Below, piece by piece: positions 3,341 to 50,356 of a DNA stretch of 64,000 nt. The DNA comes from an uncultured SAR86 cluster bacterium. GTDB taxonomy: Bacteria > Pseudomonadota > Gammaproteobacteria > Magnimaribacterales > AG-339-G14. The translations under genes were made by a program, and so were the position numbers. The DNA lies in assembly GCA_902596665.1 (NCBI GenBank), contig CACJUN010000001.1:131680-195679 (forward strand), written 5' to 3'. Below the pieces are notes generated by a model, which made no database searches, was not told the DNA's origin, and was given only the letters and a program-made list of their open reading frames with translations. Position 1 is the stretch's first letter. Each line of letters opens with the position of its first letter.

Positions 3341-4507
3341 ATGGATAAAGATTTTTCCAGAATAGAACGACTTCCTCGATATGTTTTTGAGGAGATAAAT
3401 CAATTAAAAATTCAAGCTCGTCACGATGGGAAAGACATTATTGATTTTGGCATGGGAAATCCTGATCAAGCTACTCCTGATTTTATAGTTAATAAACTTA
3501 CTGAAACAGTCAATAAAAAAGAAACTCATCGCTATTCTCAATCAAAAGGAATTCCAAGGTTAAGGAAGGCCATCTCAGATTGGTATGATAGAAAATATAA
3601 TGTCTCTATTGATCCAGAAAATGAGGCAATCGTTACAATGGGATCTAAAGAAGGTCTTGGTCATTTAGCTCTCGCAACGATGGATAAAGGAGACGTCATC
3701 CTAGTCCCGAATCCATCTTATCCCATTCATCCTTTTGGCTTTATCATTGCAGGAGCAGATATTAGACATGTCCCTATTGGTCCAGACATTGATTTTTTTA
3801 ATCAACTTGAAGAAGCAATTGCAAATACATTTCCAAAGCCAAGAATGCTTGTTTTAAATTTTCCATCGAACCCTACTACTGAGTGTGTCGATATAGATTT
3901 TTTTGAGCAGGTTGTTGAGATTGCAAAGAAAAATGAAATTTGGGTTATTCATGATTTAGCCTATGCAGATTTATGTTTTGACGATTATAAAGCTCCTTCC
4001 TTTTTAGAAGTAAAAGGAGCAAAAGATATTGGGGTAGAGTTTTTTACACTATCTAAAAGTTACAATATGCCTGGATGGAGAGTTGGTTTTTGTTGTGGAA
4101 ATAAAGATCTTATCGGCGCTCTATCCAGAGTTAAATCATATTATGACTATGGATTATTTACCCCAATTCAAGTTGCATCAATTGTTGCTCTTAATGAAGG
4201 AGATCAAGAAGTTAATAAAATTAGAGATATGTATAAAGAAAGAAGGGATGTCTTATGTGATGGATTAAATAAAATTGGCTGGGAGGTTGAGAAACCAAAA
4301 GCAACTATGTTTGTTTGGGCTAAAATTCCGGATAAATTTAAAATGAAATCTATTGAATTTTCCAAGTTATTACTTAATGAATGTGACGTAGCAGTCTCGC
4401 CTGGAATTGGTTTTGGGCAGTATGGAGATAGCTATGTCAGATTTTCTTTGATCGAGAATAGACAAAGAATAAATCAAGCAGTTAAAGGCATAAAAAAAAT
4501 ATTCTAA
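3341..4507 (+). CDS. alaC: PLP-dependent class I aminotransferase (AlaC/YfdZ-like)
   Basis: [31 protein letters not shown]. Confidence 0.8.
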
Positions 4508-5799
4508 TGGCTCAGCAAAAGATAAAGATTGCTTTATGCGGCGCAGGAAACGTAGGAGGAGCTGTATTGGAACTATTAACAGTAAATGCTGATTTCTATA
4601 AGAAAATGTTTGATACAGACTTTCTAGTAACCGATGTAGTGACAAAAAGCGGGAAATTAAGAGGATATAAGGATAAATTCAATGGAAATATTCACACCGA
4701 TTTTGAGTCAATTATCAATAATGATTCTATTGATGTTGTTATAGAGGTTATGGGCGGAATAGACGATGCATATAAAGTCGCAAAACAAGCTCTTGAATCT
4801 AAAAAAGACTTCATAACTGCTAACAAAGCAATGATGTCTTTACATGGAGATGAGCTATTTAGATTAGCTGAAAAAAATAATTTATTCATTGGATTTGAGG
4901 CTTCTGTTGCAGGAGGAATTCCAATCATAAGGTCGCTTTCTTCAAAAGCAAGAATTGAAAATATTTCTTGGTTTGCAGGAATTCTTAACGGAACAAGCAA
5001 CTATATACTATCCAAAATGGAATCAGACGGTATTGAGTTGAAGGAAGGTGTAAAGCAAGCTCAAGAACTTGGTTTCGCTGAAGCAGATCCAACATTAGAT
5101 CTCAACGGGACTGATGCAGCGCAGAAAGGAAAAGTTTTATCGTACCTCGCTTTCGGTTCAAAATTAGATAGTTCCATTGAATTAGACATTGAAGGAATAG
5201 ATATAGTTGAGAGTATAGACTTCAAGTTTGCTTTGGAACTTGGGTATTCAATCAAACCTTTATCAATAGGATCTTATGAAAAAAATAGACTCATTTTGAA
5301 ATCATTTCCTGCGTTAATTCAACAATCTTCAATACTATCTAAAGTAAATGAAGAGATGAATGCAATAGAGGTTTTTACTAAAGATTCAGGCTCTAATCTT
5401 TTTTATGGTCCGGGAGCCGGACCAAAACCTACTGCATCCTCAATATTATCTGATCTTTTTGACATAGCGCAGAATATTAAGGTTAATTACAGCAAATTCG
5501 GTCAAGGATTAATGGAGATTTCCAATAATACTTTCTCATGTCAGAGATACTTAAGATTGGAAGTGAATGATAGCCCAGGAGTAATGGCCAAAATATCATC
5601 TTTTATAGCAAAGCAAAACTTAAGTATCGAGTCTGTGATTCAGAAGGAAGATTTTTCACAAGATGGTCTAATTCCTATAGTAATTGTCCTCAATGAATGT
5701 AATGAAAATGAATTAGAAGACCTTTTAAATAGCTTTTCTAAAGAGAAGGACCTTTTCAAAAAGATTGTTCATCTTAGAATTTTTAATCCAAATAAATGA
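4507..5799 (+). CDS. hom: homoserine dehydrogenase with C-terminal ACT domain
   Basis: GAGNVGG, TANKA, FEASVAGGIP, GILNGTSNYIL, GFAEADP. Confidence 0.95.
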   Translation: MAQQKIKIALCGAGNVGGAVLELLTVNADFYKKMFDTDFLVTDVVTKSGKLRGYKDKFNGNIHTDFESIINNDSIDVVIEVMGGIDDAYKVAKQALESKKDFITANKAMMSLHGDELFRLAEKNNLFIGFEASVAGGIPIIRSLSSKARIENISWFAGILNGTSNYILSKMESDGIELKEGVKQAQELGFAEADPTLDLNGTDAAQKGKVLSYLAFGSKLDSSIELDIEGIDIVESIDFKFALELGYSIKPLSIGSYEKNRLILKSFPALIQQSSILSKVNEEMNAIEVFTKDSGSNLFYGPGAGPKPTASSILSDLFDIAQNIKVNYSKFGQGLMEISNNTFSCQRYLRLEVNDSPGVMAKISSFIAKQNLSIESVIQKEDFSQDGLIPIVIVLNECNENELEDLLNSFSKEKDLFKKIVHLRIFNPNK

Positions 5800-7163
5800 A
5801 ATACGTAAGTACAAGAGGTGAAGCTAAAGAAGCTTCCTTTGAGAATATTTTAGCTTCAGGTACAGCTTCTGACGGAGGGTTATTTGTTCCATCTGTAATT
5901 CCTAAGCTTCAAAGCGCAGTCATAGATGATATGAAAAATTTGTCCTATACAGAAATAGCTGAGATTGTTATCAAACCGTTCATCGGTGATTTTCTACAAA
6001 AAGATGAATTACAAAAAATAATTTCAGATGCATACAAAAATTTTGAAACCAATGATGTGGTTCAAATTAAAGATTACGAATTTGGGCATGTTTTAGAATT
6101 ATTCCATGGCCCAACACTCGCATTTAAAGATGTTGCCATGCAACTTTTAGGCAGGTTTCTAAACGCAGCCTCAGAGAAGTTAGGAAAAAAAATAGTTATC
6201 TTAGGAGCAACAAGCGGCGATACTGGATCTGCAGCCATTGCAGCATGTCAAAACTTTGAAAATTTACATTCCTTTATATTTTTTCCTGATGGAAAAATAT
6301 CAGAAGTCCAACGAAAACAAATGACAACCTGGAATAAAGATAATGTCGAAGCGGTCTCTGTAACTGGAAATTTCGATGATTGCCAAGACTTTGTAAAAAA
6401 AATGTTTGCAGATACTTCAGAAAATAAAGACATGCTCTTTGCGTCCATTAACTCGATAAATTGGACTAGAATTCTTGCACAAACAGTATATTTCTTTTAT
6501 TTGAGTTCAAGGATCGACAAAAAAGAAATTAATGTCTCAATCCCGTCTGGAAACTTTGGTCATGCATATGCTGGTTGGTATGCAAAAAAGATGGGTCTTA
6601 ATCTTAATAAGATAAACATTGCTACAAACAGAAATAATGTTCTTGATATCTTTTTCAAAAATAATATTTATAGAAAACTCAATACAATGGAATCATTGGC
6701 ACCTAGTATGGATATATCATCTGCTAGTAACTTTGAGAGATTGGTGTTTGATTCGATGGAAGGAGACGGAATCGAGACACAAAAATTAATGAAACAATTC
6801 AAGAAAGAAGGCTTTTCCATCGCTAATAAGCTTTATAAAGATCTCTGTAATGTTTTTGAAAGCCATTCGGTTGCTGATGAAGAAATTCTGGAGGAGATTG
6901 AATTTCTTTATGAAATGACAGGGGATATTTTTGATCCACACACTGCAATTGGGATTAAAAATATTCGTGAAGGAAGCGCTGAAAATTATGTCTGTTTTGC
7001 GACAGCTCACCCCTCAAAGTTTATTGATACCATAAAAAAAGTCATACCTAATTTTTCCGATACTCCTAAAAGACTACAAAAATTCTTAGATTCAGAAGAA
7101 AAATATGAAACCATGAATTACAATTTCTCAGATTTGAAAGAATTCATATTTAATAAGATTTAA
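5796..7163 (+). CDS. thrC: threonine synthase
   Basis: MKYVSTRG, LELFHGPTLAFKDVA, ATSGDTG, SINSINW, PSGNFG. Confidence 0.96.
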   Translation: MKYVSTRGEAKEASFENILASGTASDGGLFVPSVIPKLQSAVIDDMKNLSYTEIAEIVIKPFIGDFLQKDELQKIISDAYKNFETNDVVQIKDYEFGHVLELFHGPTLAFKDVAMQLLGRFLNAASEKLGKKIVILGATSGDTGSAAIAACQNFENLHSFIFFPDGKISEVQRKQMTTWNKDNVEAVSVTGNFDDCQDFVKKMFADTSENKDMLFASINSINWTRILAQTVYFFYLSSRIDKKEINVSIPSGNFGHAYAGWYAKKMGLNLNKINIATNRNNVLDIFFKNNIYRKLNTMESLAPSMDISSASNFERLVFDSMEGDGIETQKLMKQFKKEGFSIANKLYKDLCNVFESHSVADEEILEEIEFLYEMTGDIFDPHTAIGIKNIREGSAENYVCFATAHPSKFIDTIKKVIPNFSDTPKRLQKFLDSEEKYETMNYNFSDLKEFIFNKI

Positions 7164-7165
7164 AG

Positions 7166-8249
7166 ATGCAAGAGATTTCATTAAAGGATCGCTTAATAGC
7201 TGCAAAAAACTCTCTTGATGAGTTAAGGGGGTATCTTTGACTTATCGGATAAAGAGTCAAAATTAAAAGAGATTAATCTAGAACTTGAAAATCCTGAAGT
7301 TTGGCAAGATCAAGAAAAAGCTAAAATACTCAATAAAGAAAAATCTTTCTTAGAAAAAATAATAACCCTATATTCAGAATTATCTTCTAATGTAAATGAT
7401 CTAATTGAATTAGAAGCAATTTCGAGTGATTCAGAGATTAAAGATTTATCTGATGAAGTAGTTAATCTTGAATCACAACTTAAGGAATTGGAATTTCAAA
7501 GAATGTTCTCAAATAAGATGGATCCTAATGATGCTTTTCTTGATATTCAGGCAGGATCAGGAGGGACTGAGGCGCAAGATTGGGCAGAAATGTTGATGAG
7601 AATGTATCTTAGGTGGGGCGAAGATAAAAAATTTACAGTAGAAGTTATAGAGGTTTCTCCAGGTGATGTCGCTGGAATTAAAAGCGCTACAATAAAATAT
7701 TCAGGTGATTATGCTTACGGTTGGCTAAGAACAGAGACCGGAGTTCATAGACTTGTGAGAAAATCACCATTTGATTCAGGAAATAGAAGACATACCTCAT
7801 TTGCATCAATTTTCGTTTCTCCAGAAATAGATGACGATATTGAAGTAGATTTAAATCCTGCAGATATAAGAGTCGATACTTATCGTGCAAGTGGGGCTGG
7901 AGGGCAGCATGTTAATAAGACTGATTCTGCTGTTAGATTGACTCATGAACCAACCGGTATCGTTGTCCAATGTCAAAGTGGAAGATCCCAACATAGAAAT
8001 AAAGAAGAAGCCATGAAACAATTAAGAGCAAGGCTTTATGAGTTGGAACTAAATAAGAAAGAAGAGGAATTGCAGAGCCTAGAAGATTCAAAATCAGATA
8101 TTGGCTGGGGAAGTCAAATAAGGTCATATGTTTTAGATTCGTCTAGAATTAAAGATCTAAGAACTGGAGTAGAGACTTCAAACTGCAATTCAGTCCTGGA
8201 TGGTGATATCAACTTATTTATTGAGGCTAGTTTAAAAGAGGGCATTTAA
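7166..8249 (+). CDS. prfB: peptide chain release factor 2, expressed via programmed +1 frameshift (about 360 aa)
   Basis: ATG at 7166 runs 24 codons to CTT TGA. The +1 frame from GAC (7239) is open to 8249 and contains SPF and GGQ. The ORF track catches only 7488-8249. Confidence 0.96.
7226..7241 (+). promoter_or_regulatory. RF2 +1 frameshift cassette (internal SD AGGGGG, TAT, CTT TGA C)
   Basis: AGGGGGTATCTTTGAC read directly; matches the canonical prfB signal. Confidence 0.96.
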
Positions 8250-48227: not shown

Positions 48228-48278
48228 ATTTGATCTATGTAAATCCTTAACATTATTACAACTTAGTTGTTGAGCTCT

Positions 48279-48617
48279 ATGAAGTTACTCACTTTAATTG
48301 TAAAACCGTCAAAGACTGAATTAGTCAAGGAAGCATTAGATGCATCTGGTATTGGTGGGGCAACAATTCTTGATGCTTCAGGTTATGGGTCACAAAGGGG
48401 TCAATCTGAAACTTACAGAGGAACTGAATATCGCATCGATACCAATCCCAAAGTAATGTTTCAAGTTGCCTGTGATGATGACGATACATCTTCAATCATC
48501 GAAGCAGTTAAAAATGCTGCAGGCACAGGAAAGATAGGCGACGGGAAAATTTTCATTACTGAATTAACTGATGTAGTGAGAATTAGAACAGGTGAGACAG
48601 GCTCAAAAGCTATTTAA
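48279..48617 (+). CDS. glnK: P-II nitrogen regulatory protein
   Basis: GYGSQRG, YRGTEY (Tyr51), TGKIGDGKIF, VRIRTGE; upstream of amtB; ATG 48279 gives 112 aa. Confidence 0.93.
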   Translation: MKLLTLIVKPSKTELVKEALDASGIGGATILDASGYGSQRGQSETYRGTEYRIDTNPKVMFQVACDDDDTSSIIEAVKNAAGTGKIGDGKIFITELTDVVRIRTGETGSKAI

Positions 48618-48633
48618 TTTTTAGGAGTATTAA

Positions 48634-49869
48634 ATGGATGAAATAAAATTTGCGGTAGATACCTTTTACGCAATTATGGCTGGTGCCTTAGTTATGTGGA
48701 TGGCTGCTGGTTTCACAATGTTGGAAGCTGGATTGGTTCAAAAGAAAGACGTATCAGAAATCGTAACAAAAAATTTAGGTTTATATTCAATTGCTTGCAT
48801 CATGTATCTAGCATGCGGATTTATTTTAATGTATCCCGGATCCTCATTAATAGATGGAGTTATCCCAGGTATTGGATCTTCATGGGGTCTATCAACAGCT
48901 CTTCCAATAGAAGAAATTGGAATGGAATACGGAATGGACTATTCTCAACAAGCTGACTTCTTTTTCCAAGTAGTCTTTGTTGCGACAGCTATGTCAATTG
49001 TTTCAGGAGCAGTAGCTGGAAGAATGAAACTTTTACCATTCTTCTTGTTCGCAGTTATCCTTACTGGTTTCATTTATCCTATTCAAGGTTACTGGAATTG
49101 GGGTGGTGGTTTCTTGAGTTCTGGTGGTTATTCAGACTACGCTGGTTCAGGAACAGTTCACTTATGTGGAGCAGCTGCAGCTTTAGCTTTAGTAACAGTC
49201 CTCGGTCCTCGAAACGGAAAGTACGGCATGGATGGTTCAGTGAATGCTATGCCAGGTTCAAACATTCCGATCGCCGCATTAGGAGCATGGATACTTTGGT
49301 TGGGTTGGTTTGGATTCAACGGTGGATCTGAGTTAATTATTAGTGACGAAGCAAGCGCTATAGCAGTGAGCCAAGTATTCATGAATACAAACATGGCCGC
49401 AGCAGGCGGTGTAGTTGCTGCATTACTCACAAGTCTTTTTGCGACTGGCAAAATGGATGTCACAATGGCCATCAATGGTGCCATTGCTGGTTTGGTAGCC
49501 ATTACTGCTGGTCCAAGTGCACCTTCAGGTGGTGAGGCAGTTATCATCGGTGCTATCGGTGGTGTAATAGTCTATTTCTCAATTTTATTCTTCGAGAAAC
49601 GCTTAAAAATAGATGATCCAGTCGGAGCTATATCTGCTCACGGTATAGTAGGTATTTACGGAGTAATGGTTGTTCCATTTACTTCAGATGCCTCATTCTT
49701 ATGGCAGCTCTACGGTGTTGTTGCTATCGCAGGATTCACTTATGTTGCTAGTTTAATAGCTATCTACGTCATCAATATGTTCTTATCAATAAGGGCTACT
49801 GATGAAGAACAAGCGGCAGGTCTTGATTCCACTGAAATTGGAGTAGAGGCTTACCCAGAGTTCGACTAA
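48634..49869 (+). CDS. amtB: ammonium transporter
   Basis: WMAAGFTMLEAG, DYAGSGTVH, GWFGFNGGS, IDDPVGAISAHG. Confidence 0.96.
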   Translation: MDEIKFAVDTFYAIMAGALVMWMAAGFTMLEAGLVQKKDVSEIVTKNLGLYSIACIMYLACGFILMYPGSSLIDGVIPGIGSSWGLSTALPIEEIGMEYGMDYSQQADFFFQVVFVATAMSIVSGAVAGRMKLLPFFLFAVILTGFIYPIQGYWNWGGGFLSSGGYSDYAGSGTVHLCGAAAALALVTVLGPRNGKYGMDGSVNAMPGSNIPIAALGAWILWLGWFGFNGGSELIISDEASAIAVSQVFMNTNMAAAGGVVAALLTSLFATGKMDVTMAINGAIAGLVAITAGPSAPSGGEAVIIGAIGGVIVYFSILFFEKRLKIDDPVGAISAHGIVGIYGVMVVPFTSDASFLWQLYGVVAIAGFTYVASLIAIYVINMFLSIRATDEEQAAGLDSTEIGVEAYPEFD

Positions 49870-49886: not shown

Positions 49887-49917
49887 AAACAGGCGAGATT
49901 TTATCTCGCCTGTTTTT
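49887..49917 (+). terminator. intrinsic terminator after amtB
   Basis: AAACAGGCGAGAT-TTT-ATCTCGCCTGTTTTT. Confidence 0.9.
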
Positions 49918-49936: not shown

Positions 49937-49945
49937 TGGTATAAT
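49937..49945 (+). promoter_or_regulatory. extended -10 sigma70 promoter
   Basis: TGgTATAAT ends 7 nt before the riboswitch 5' end. Confidence 0.7.
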
Positions 49946-49952
49946 TGATTTA

Positions 49953-50088
49953 CGTTCATTTAGTATTTTTCATTAAATTTACTAAACGGAAGTAGGGAGA
50001 TAGGAAAACCTCTTTCTTTGATCTAAAAGAAAGGTAAGCAAGTACCAAGAAATTGGGAACGAGACCGAATATCTACCGAAGGAACGCG
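49953..50088 (+). ncRNA. glutamine riboswitch, glnA-motif type, with enlarged P3
   Basis: CGUUCA-[P2 UUUAGUA/UACUAAA]-CGGAAGUAGG-[P3]-CCGAAGGAACGCG; P1 = CGUUC/GAACG. Matches the glnA RNA core as recalled. Confidence 0.85.
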
Positions 50089-50148
50089 TTGATAAGGGTG
50101 TATACCGATTGGTATATGTACGTTTGAAACGAAAACTGGAGGAACGAT

Positions 50149-50310
50149 ATGACTACTTACTATAGAGGCGTTGAAGTTTCTGGTGAAGTTAAGTCTAAGT
50201 CTAACAAGGCTACTGATTTAAACTACAGAGGAACTAAGCACGACGCAAACGTTGTCAAAAAGTCGTCTAAAACACCTGGTATTTACCGTGGTGTTGAGAC
50301 TGCTGCATAA
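50149..50310 (+). CDS. 53-aa peptide with three YRG repeats (DUF4278-like); not in the ORF track
   Basis: SD GGAGGA (50138-43); MTTYYRGVEVSGEVKSKSNKATDLNYRGTKHDANVVKKSSKTPGIYRGVETAA*; optimal-type codons; own terminator. Confidence 0.88.
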   Translation: MTTYYRGVEVSGEVKSKSNKATDLNYRGTKHDANVVKKSSKTPGIYRGVETAA

Positions 50311-50326
50311 CATAAGGTTATGAATT

Positions 50327-50356
50327 AAAGGGAGGTTTTTTGACCTCCCTTTTTTT
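50327..50356 (+). terminator. intrinsic terminator
   Basis: AAAGGGAGGT-TTTTTG-ACCTCCCTTT plus T-tract. Confidence 0.9.

Follow-up and report, generated by a model that had tools for sequence, protein, structure and literature searches.

The stretch of DNA analysed here, 64,000 nt from an uncultured SAR86 cluster bacterium (the window), carries on its forward strand an RNA that we assign, from its sequence, to the glutamine-I (glnA-type) riboswitches (49953-50086), as a distinct subclass in which the P3 helix bears an added branched domain. The interval 49951-50090 (+) matches the Rfam family RF01739 (Glutamine riboswitch, glnA leader) with 40.6 bits against a gathering threshold of 35 (E = 2.2e-05), over model positions 1-53 of 53, and P1, P2 and both strands of the E-loop align to the consensus, with the 3′ tail GC also present. 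This was the only riboswitch match in an Rfam scan of the full 64,000 nt, and the same scan gave no match to glutamine-II (Downstream-peptide, RF01704) at the gathering threshold anywhere in the window. Near-identical riboswitches were found in single-cell genomes labelled SAR86 cluster when one genome per species was scanned.

Immediately upstream of the riboswitch lie a PII (glnK-like) gene and an Amt gene (48267-49869, assigned with Pfam). An intrinsic terminator detected by the terminator scan ends amt (49887-49915) and another closes the riboswitch-peptide unit (50327-50352, +), so that the unit stands alone between a terminator 5′ of it and its own terminator 3′ of it. A putative extended -10 promoter element, TGgTATAAT, can be read at 49937-49945 (+); it was not listed by the promoter consensus scan and has no -35 element. 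Transcription is predicted to start at about 49952-49953, the first base of the aptamer. The gene under control would be an open reading frame (ORF) at 50149-50310 (+) for a basic 53-aa peptide with three YRG motifs, which is DUF4278-like (E = 1e-4 and 23 bits against Pfam DUF4278, just under the cut-off of 25.3) and has 13 close relatives by protein homology search. Together, the peptide and the glutamine riboswitch look like an IF17-type glutamine-synthetase inactivating factor system in SAR86.

Within the aptamer, the P1 5′ strand CGUUC (49953-49957, +) pairs with 50082-50086 and is followed by the P2 hairpin (49959-49986, +; 7 bp with a 14-nt loop) and by CGGAAGUA (49987-49994, +), which comprises J2/3 and the 5′ strand of the aptamer's own E-loop. 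On the other side of P3, the E-loop 3′ strand GAAG runs into the P1 3′ strand GAACG (50078-50086, +). These assignments follow the Rfam alignment and consensus, and the E-loop strands that flank P3, GGAAGUA (49988-49994) and GAAG (50078-50081), are invariant, as are both strands of P1. The interval 49995-50077 is exactly the P3 of the riboswitch. Its 5′ strand GGGAGAUA (49995-50002, +) pairs with its 3′ strand UAUCUACC (50070-50077, +), leaving a G49997/A50075 mismatch, and 79 nt separate the closing GG and CC where the RF01739 model has a 6-nt loop. The short P3 hairpin of the glutamine-I family is thus not what is found in the window; P3 itself is present and covaries. A first-pass annotation, made from the letters of the window, had proposed a P3 expanded into a multi-way junction and closed by GG/CC (49995-49996/50076-50077) and AGAUA/UAUCU (49998-50002/50070-50074), and covariation bears out both closing segments.

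To collect homologues, we searched for the glnA core strings placed 60-90 nt apart in one genome per species, in IMG/VR viral contigs and in JGI metagenomes. Besides tandem aptamers and a few chance matches, these scans returned a large family carrying the same insert. A second scan of the viral contigs used strings internal to the insert only and made no use of the glnA flanks; it returned 109 viral stretches and added 75 instances (45 distinct) to the collection. All 75 had the two glnA flanks, GGAAGUA and GAAGGAAC, bar one that was cut by a contig end, and this insert-only pattern scan found no copy of the domain outside a glnA P3 among the viral contigs. In total the insert was found in at least 221 instances, at least 112 of them distinct: 145 viral, at least 38 metagenomic and 37 from genomes, together with the window. 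The carriers are SAR86 genomes, Melnitz/pelagimyophage-like viral contigs and marine metagenomes. A covariance model comprising P1, P2, the P3 extension and two inner hairpins was built from an alignment of 96 distinct full-length copies, and the copies were then realigned to it, a procedure that fits the alignments to the model and hence biases them toward it.

In these 96 distinct copies the insert is conserved and its helices covary. After realignment, 96.0% of the cells held standard pairs compared with 77.4% after partner shuffling, and the covariation score was 0.491 as against 0.150 for shuffled partners, none of 500 shuffles reaching 0.491. Sliding the partners by 1-3 columns lowered the score to 0.12 or less, and the insert-only sample scored 0.578 as against 0.178. 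These slide controls and the independent insert-only sample make an alignment artefact unlikely. In P3, both sides change in four of seven pairs among the 96 homologues and in six of seven in the insert-only sample, with variants such as AGAUA/UAUCU, AAAC/GUUU, UAAAG/CUUUA and GAC/GUC. The inner helix nearest the 5′ junction strand, hairpin 1, shows compensatory change in four of its five tested pairs and has an invariant closing C-G; hairpin 2 covaries at both of its tested pairs (CG, GC, AU and UG). All five tested pairs of P2 change on both sides, and P1 never varies (96/96), as expected for the glnA family. RNAalifold, which is blind to the imposed structure, also returned P1, P2, hairpin 1 and hairpin 2. 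Folding energy gave a different picture: for the 83-nt and 140-nt RNAs, the minimum free energy (MFE) and centroid structures reproduced the fold of the first-pass annotation in part, and the predicted energies were no better than those of dinucleotide shuffles (z = -0.83 for the 83-nt segment and -1.08 for the whole aptamer). Because of these z-scores we do not use energy as evidence, and the support for the structure is comparative. These comparisons show that the domain has three real helices and that selection on its junction bases is strong.

The domain comprises about 67 nt (50003-50069) arranged as a three-way junction of P3, hairpin 1 and an arm. Its 5′ junction strand (50003-50011, +) consists of the variable G50003 followed by the invariant GAAAACCU; 50004-50011 is identical in 96/96 copies and is demanded by all 112 distinct ones. 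Hairpin 1 (50012-50033, +) is formed in the window by CUUUCUUU/AAAGAAAG around the loop GAUCUA, and across homologues its stem ranges from 2 to 20 bp and its loop is variable. The 5′ strand of the arm, G-UA-AGC-A-AGUA (50034-50044, +), carries the loop-E-type AGUA at 50041-50044; G50034, AGC and AGUA are invariant while 50035 and 50036 vary. Hairpin 2 follows (CCAA GAAA UUGG, 50045-50056, +), with a variable loop, and then the 3′ strand of the arm, GAACGAG (50057-50063, +), in which GAA faces AGUA and G50061 faces C50039; GAA and GAG are invariant and 50060 is C or A. The 3′ junction strand (50064-50069, +) is the invariant ACCGA and a variable A50069. In all, 29 bases are identical in 96/96 copies, namely GAAAACCUC (50004-50012), G50033-G50034, AGC (50037-50039), AGUA (50041-50044), GAA (50057-50059) and GAGACCGA (50061-50068), and the bases that vary are 50003, 50035, 50036, 50069 and those of all loops and stems.

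Several elements of the proposed fold have to be redrawn in the light of this pattern. A mini-hairpin GG-AAAA-CC had been drawn within the 5′ junction strand, but the 96 copies have G (56), U (33) or A (7) at position 50003 opposite an invariant C50010, and the G50003-C50010 pair is broken in 40/96 without compensation. With the mini-hairpin removed, the junction is three-way and not the multi-way junction that had been proposed. The closure of the arm by GGU/ACC also holds only in part, as the third pair, U50035-A50064, is broken in 63/96 copies without compensation, and G50033, which this helix would use, is already the invariant closing base of hairpin 1. The hairpin at 50012-50033 and the CCAA/UUGG hairpin at 50045-50056 were both correctly identified, the former being returned independently by RNAalifold as noted above and the latter covarying at both tested pairs. 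The GAAA tetraloop that had been assigned to the latter is present in the window and is not conserved: GNRA loops cap hairpin 2 in about one third of the 112 distinct copies.

The two strands of the arm change together. Nineteen distinct copies have a U inserted after AGC, and all of them also have an extra A in GAAC-A-GAG (19/19), while neither is found in the other 93/93; likewise, the three sequences with G at 50040 all have A at 50060 (3/3). Because of these coupled U/A insertions and the association of G50040 with A50060, strands 50037-50044 and 50057-50063 can be placed facing each other. The invariant AGUA (50041-50044) and GAA (50057-50059) directly abut the covarying hairpin 2, and this is the signature of a loop-E or bulged-G (sarcin-ricin-type) module. 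To that degree the second loop-E module of the first-pass annotation is well founded, its signature being invariant, adjoining a covarying helix and carrying the same signature as the module that the aptamer itself has beside P3.

Near P3, the invariant ACC-GA (50064-50068) opposite GA (50004-50005) resembles a kink-turn (k-turn) in sequence only. ACC would be its candidate 3-nt loop, and G50004-A50005 are candidate sheared partners of A50068-G50067, adjoining P3; the 50003/50069 pair next to these bases is variable (A.U, A.G, C-G, C.U and C.A). Two candidate C helices can be drawn. In the first, GAG (50061-50063) pairs with CUC (50010-50012) in Watson-Crick fashion with four extra bases on the non-bulged strand; in the second it pairs with AGC (50037-50039) with one Watson-Crick pair, and hairpin 1 then serves as the T helix across a 6-nt connector. 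We tentatively take the invariant strands to form a loop-E stack in the arm and a kink of the k-turn or k-junction type. Under the definitions of PMC10573300, most of the invariant bases can be assigned either to the loop-E signature (7 nt) or to a k-turn-like one (about 13 nt).

Between the E-loop and the junction, the P3 connector measures about 3 bp in 13 of the distinct copies and 7-9 bp in the others. The size of P2 varies from 4 bp with a tetraloop up to 8 bp with 11 nt, and no hairpin loop of the domain is conserved among the 112 distinct copies. A tertiary clamp, in which the domain would dock onto the rest of the RNA and which had been put forward as one possible function, is unlikely because of this bimodal connector, the variable P2 and the unconserved loops.

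Between the aptamer and the gene lie the 3′ tail and the expression platform (50087-50148, +), with the Shine-Dalgarno (SD) sequence GGAGG at 50138-50142. The linker belongs to a conserved class, cgttga.aagggtgt-hairpin-atgtacg..aaacgaaaactggagg, that is common to many homologues. Its roughly 60 nt (cgttgagaagggtgt-hairpin-atgtacgaaatcgaaacgaaaactggagg) are kept between SAR86 and phage copies and include GAAAAC just 5′ of the SD, a hexamer that also occurs in the junction strand of the domain. At least four linker classes were seen among the domain carriers, the short ones having a post-P1 tail complementary to the SD, as is expected of the canonical mechanism; judged from these sequences, the domain is independent of the expression platform. 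Wherever the downstream YRG ORFs can be read complete, they encode 40-59 aa, mostly 52-57, with three YRG motifs and in a few cases two. In the window, GAACG at 50142-50146 overlaps the 3′ end of the SD and repeats the P1 3′ strand. In the MFE structure of the full leader, the P1 5′ strand (49953-49957) is paired with 50142-50146 and not with 50082-50086; this pairing may be an OFF-state helix peculiar to the SAR86 subclade of the window.

The phage carriers are illustrated by a 146-kb T4-like viral contig (L096), in which the riboswitch and a gene for a peptide with three YRG motifs (3xYRG) lie at 4250-4620 (-), between the tail-tube and major-head genes (3666-4247 and 5936-7246). Its major capsid protein is 68.5% identical to that of Methylophilales phage Melnitz and 64% identical to that of Pelagibacter phage HTVC008M. 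A blastn search of 50,697 deposited phage records, Melnitz included, found no copy of the branched domain.

Other glnA RNAs differ in what they carry at this position. At least 121 viral copies have a simple P3, with 4-15 nt inside P3 among the matches listed; about one quarter of these, again among the matches listed, lie before genes for YRG peptides, most of which have two motifs. The lengths of P3 are thus bimodal, and because simple-P3 copies precede YRG genes, the domain is not required for YRG gene control in general. Branched P3 inserts of another sequence, also with two hairpins, precede 3xYRG peptide genes in Halieaceae (loci L018, L022, L038, L043, L051 and L192), in OM182 (L017, L204 and L221) and in a Methylococcaceae-like group; among the loci of marine gammaproteobacteria with such inserts are also L003, L009, L049 and L228, and L032. 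The Halieaceae insert can be aligned with the domain of the window and has a plain 9-bp helix where the loop-E module sits, which supports the arm as a continuous helix-like element and shows the loop E to be specific to the type found in the window. Cyanobacterial long-P3 copies precede longer DUF4278 proteins; in SAR11, the genes after tandem aptamers are amt, glnA or those of small peptides. Tandem simple glnA aptamers were also seen in L010, L011, L020 and others, of SAR11 type and in some SAR86 genomes, before genes for an ammonium transporter, glutamine synthetase or 35-43-aa non-YRG peptides; as these tandem loci precede other genes, one lineage uses different riboswitch architectures for different nitrogen genes. 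Eight metagenome loci (L156, L161, L217, L233, L235, L252, L255 and L259) have the order CGGAAGUA-AG-CCGACGCGGAACGG-AUCGUUCAUA-[long hairpin]-UACGCAAACGCCGACU-GAAGGAACG, with covarying hairpins, and look like two glnA aptamers with exchanged or hybrid E-loop halves.

Two simple accounts of the extra RNA can be set aside. The insert alone (49997-50075) matched no Rfam family at E<=10, glnA included, and gave only a chance match to a CRISPR repeat, which rules out a second glutamine aptamer. A tandem arrangement of glnA aptamers was also rejected, since the window has one RF01739 match and no second complete aptamer (P1, P2, E-loop and P3). The first-pass annotation had described the extra domain as nested rather than tandem, and the conserved insert, which the insert-only scan of viral contigs placed only in a glnA P3, agrees with that description.

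The domain is thus a selected part of the RNA, and it may add something to glutamine sensing. Our tentative view, to which we give a probability of about 0.45, is that it is a self-folding architectural module that caps P3 and tunes the glutamine response. P3 opens, after a connector of about 3-9 bp, into a conserved three-way junction instead of a loop. This junction carries hairpin 1 (50012-50033) and an irregular arm (50034-50063) in which a loop-E-type module is capped by hairpin 2, while tandem G50004.A50068 and A50005.G50067 pairs beside P3, with ACC as the 3-nt loop, would produce a kink. The loop-E stack and the kink together could make a rigid, self-folding cap that locks P3 and hence the adjacent E-loop and glutamine pocket. 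With P3 locked, the folding equilibrium would be displaced, as would the effective response to glutamine of a switch that acts on translation of the IF17-like peptide in the ON direction. In this scheme the domain would be neither a second glutamine aptamer nor part of the expression platform. P3 is reported to change conformation on glutamine binding, and its tip is tolerant, as the RNA that was crystallised bore a foreign U1A loop there (PMC5393176); the ON direction of a glutamine riboswitch was shown for gifB by Klahn et al. 2018 (PMC6212724). The replacement of the junction by other sequences in other marine gammaproteobacteria suggests that architecture, rather than one specific pocket, is what is maintained.

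Several observations weigh against an architectural cap. A simple stabilising cap should need fewer than the 29 invariant bases that are kept here within about 67 nt by phages and streamlined genomes, and the equally AT-rich SAR11 and many phage glnA aptamers manage with a P3 tip of 4-15 nt, some of them before YRG peptides. The k-turn requires either four extra bases on the non-bulged strand or a first C-helix pair that is not Watson-Crick, the CUC/GAG and AGC/GAG pairings are both possible, their bases being invariant and so beyond covariation, and the G.A pairs are missing from the Halieaceae version. In predicted energy, the fold does not surpass shuffled sequences. Finally, the mechanism itself is one that we infer from the sequence.

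The density of invariant bases could also mean that the junction binds a different effector, either a small molecule reporting nitrogen status or a protein, perhaps the 3xYRG peptide itself as a form of feedback. Proteins classically bind to modules of the loop-E and k-turn type. The junction, with about 29 invariant bases amid free stems and loops, has the conservation pattern of an aptamer core, the sequence of the domain is kept like that of a self-contained unit whatever the length of the P3 connector or the expression platform, and the link to 3xYRG peptide genes is strict. The lack of a match to any Rfam family speaks against such a second input, as do the unrelated junction sequences that other gammaproteobacterial lineages have at the same position and in the same gene context; in addition, architectural motifs account for most of the invariant bases, and no candidate ligand or protein can be identified from the sequence. 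We also count against a second input the report that k-junctions do not bind L7Ae (PMC10573300). On balance a second effector, the main rival of the cap, is possible but on the unlikely side, and its full form, a second sensor for a metabolite or protein nested in the glutamine aptamer and passing two signals through one P1 and platform, is somewhat more doubtful still.

A role in the expression platform would place the function of the junction in its 5′ strand, where CCUC(Y) (50009-50013) could act as an anti-SD, pairing with GGAGG (50138-50142) when the switch is OFF and becoming sequestered within the junction once the aptamer has folded. CCUC is, by eye, the sole such motif in the purine-rich leader of the window, it is followed nearly always by a pyrimidine (U 64, C 31, A 1), giving five possible pairs with GGAGG, and in about 20 of 100 leaders folded without constraint the SD paired mainly with it. 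In the other 80 or so of the 100, however, the SD paired elsewhere or was open. The domain is unchanged alongside short platforms whose own 3′ tail is a good anti-SD (CAUUUCUUUU versus AAGGGAGAAGUG), and because these short canonical platforms keep it we set the anti-SD role aside. The stable P3 moreover separates the junction from the ligand site, so that its opening is not obviously coupled to glutamine, and the invariance of the loop-E arm would be left unexplained. We regard this role as improbable.

Slightly less credible is a degenerate nested copy, in which the glnA three-way junction would have been duplicated into its own P3. The aptamer-like fold kept by such a copy would have CUC/GAG as P1′, hairpin 1 as P2′, AAGUA...GAAC as E-loop′ and hairpin 2 as P3′. 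The order of elements in the aptamer (ACGGAAGUA-P3-GAAGGAACG) is paralleled in the insert (AGCAAGUA-hp2-GAACGAGACCG), but the insert gives no match to the glnA model at E<=10, the glutamine-core strings CGUUC/GAACG and CGG are absent from it, and the Halieaceae pair the base of the arm within the arm and not with the 5′ junction strand. An ancient duplication as the origin of the insert is conceivable. Strings of the form G.AAGUA-helix-GAA.GA.C.G run in parallel in aptamer and insert.

Neutral expansion at a permissive P3 site, as tolerated junk or a recently spread mobile cassette lacking function, is hardly tenable: the tip of P3 was dispensable in the crystallised construct (PMC5393176) and P3 length varies widely among glnA RNAs, including the long P3 of cyanobacteria, but 29 perfectly conserved bases, compensatory helix changes and free loops and linkers in bacteria and phages alike form a pattern of conservation that is incompatible with neutrality.

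Whichever function applies, the window belongs to a widespread and sharply conserved glutamine riboswitch subclass with a large added domain. It sits in SAR86, a heterotrophic bacterial group that is among the most abundant in surface ocean waters, and in relatives of the phages of SAR11 and OM43, and it is tied to 3xYRG peptides that resemble glutamine-synthetase inactivating factors. Glutamine riboswitches rank with the smallest riboswitches and the weakest binders, and have been portrayed as a device by which cyanobacteria control glutamine-synthetase inactivating factors. Should the domain do no more than stiffen P3, it would be a clean natural case of a peripheral module that tunes a minimal aptamer; if it binds something, the RNA would be a nested two-input riboswitch. 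To our knowledge, an architecture that passes two signals through one P1 and one platform has not been described for any riboswitch. The RF01739 model could be divided or enlarged so as to cover the domain, and the 137 nt at 49952-50088 of the window offer a defined unit for study.

Compared with known systems, the riboswitch family, its tandem forms and its presence in SAR86 and Melnitz-like phages are already known, and what appears to be new is the domain itself. The suggestion of the first-pass annotation that this may be a new riboswitch variant needs a qualification, as only the domain appears undescribed and its members are known: in the original glnA alignment of Weinberg et al. 2010 (PMC2864571), sequences with exactly this insert are already present, the insert being held as unaligned columns. 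We found no description of the domain, the invariant junction, the loop-E arm or the 3xYRG link in the searchable literature, and an earlier remark in Ames & Breaker 2011 or Ren et al. 2015 is possible. The glutamine-I/glnA RNA (RF01739; PMC2864571, PMC6212724) shares with the window P1, P2, the E-loop, P3, the 3′ tail GC, a DUF4278-like peptide downstream and adjoining glnK-amt genes; the window differs in that its P3 bears a three-way-junction domain of about 67 nt and in that its hosts, instead of cyanobacteria, are SAR86 gammaproteobacteria and uncultured myophages. The combination of an inactivating factor with a glutamine riboswitch is described by Klahn et al. 2018 (PMC6212724) as cyanobacterial, with some unassigned metagenome reads besides.

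Tandem glnA aptamers (Weinberg 2010; SAR11) likewise place extra structured RNA on one expression platform in a marine setting, but they consist of two complete aptamers side by side, whereas the window has a single aptamer with a nested non-aptamer domain. The glutamine riboswitches of Melnitz-like phages and pelagimyophages (Buchholz et al. 2022, PMC9004378) are also of the glnA type and belong to T4-like phages of streamlined marine heterotrophs; the carriers of the domain are uncultured relatives of these phages, and their cassette encodes the 3xYRG peptide. With the k-turns and k-junctions of thiamine pyrophosphate riboswitches and the DUF-3268 RNA (PMC4005666, PMC10573300), the junction would share a candidate 3-nt loop, ACC, followed by G-A facing G-A, a helix whose first pair is often non-canonical and a third helix on the non-bulged strand. 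It differs from them in having six connecting bases instead of about two and, in the arm model, a first C-helix pair that is not Watson-Crick, the likeness being one of sequence. Optional structured peripheral domains, built from loop-E and kink modules around a small conserved ligand core and defining subclasses, are familiar from the P6 extension of cobalamin riboswitches and from P2 of lysine riboswitches with its loop E and k-turn, where they make tertiary contacts to the core; in the window type, the variable connector and unconserved loops argue against such a fixed contact with the core.

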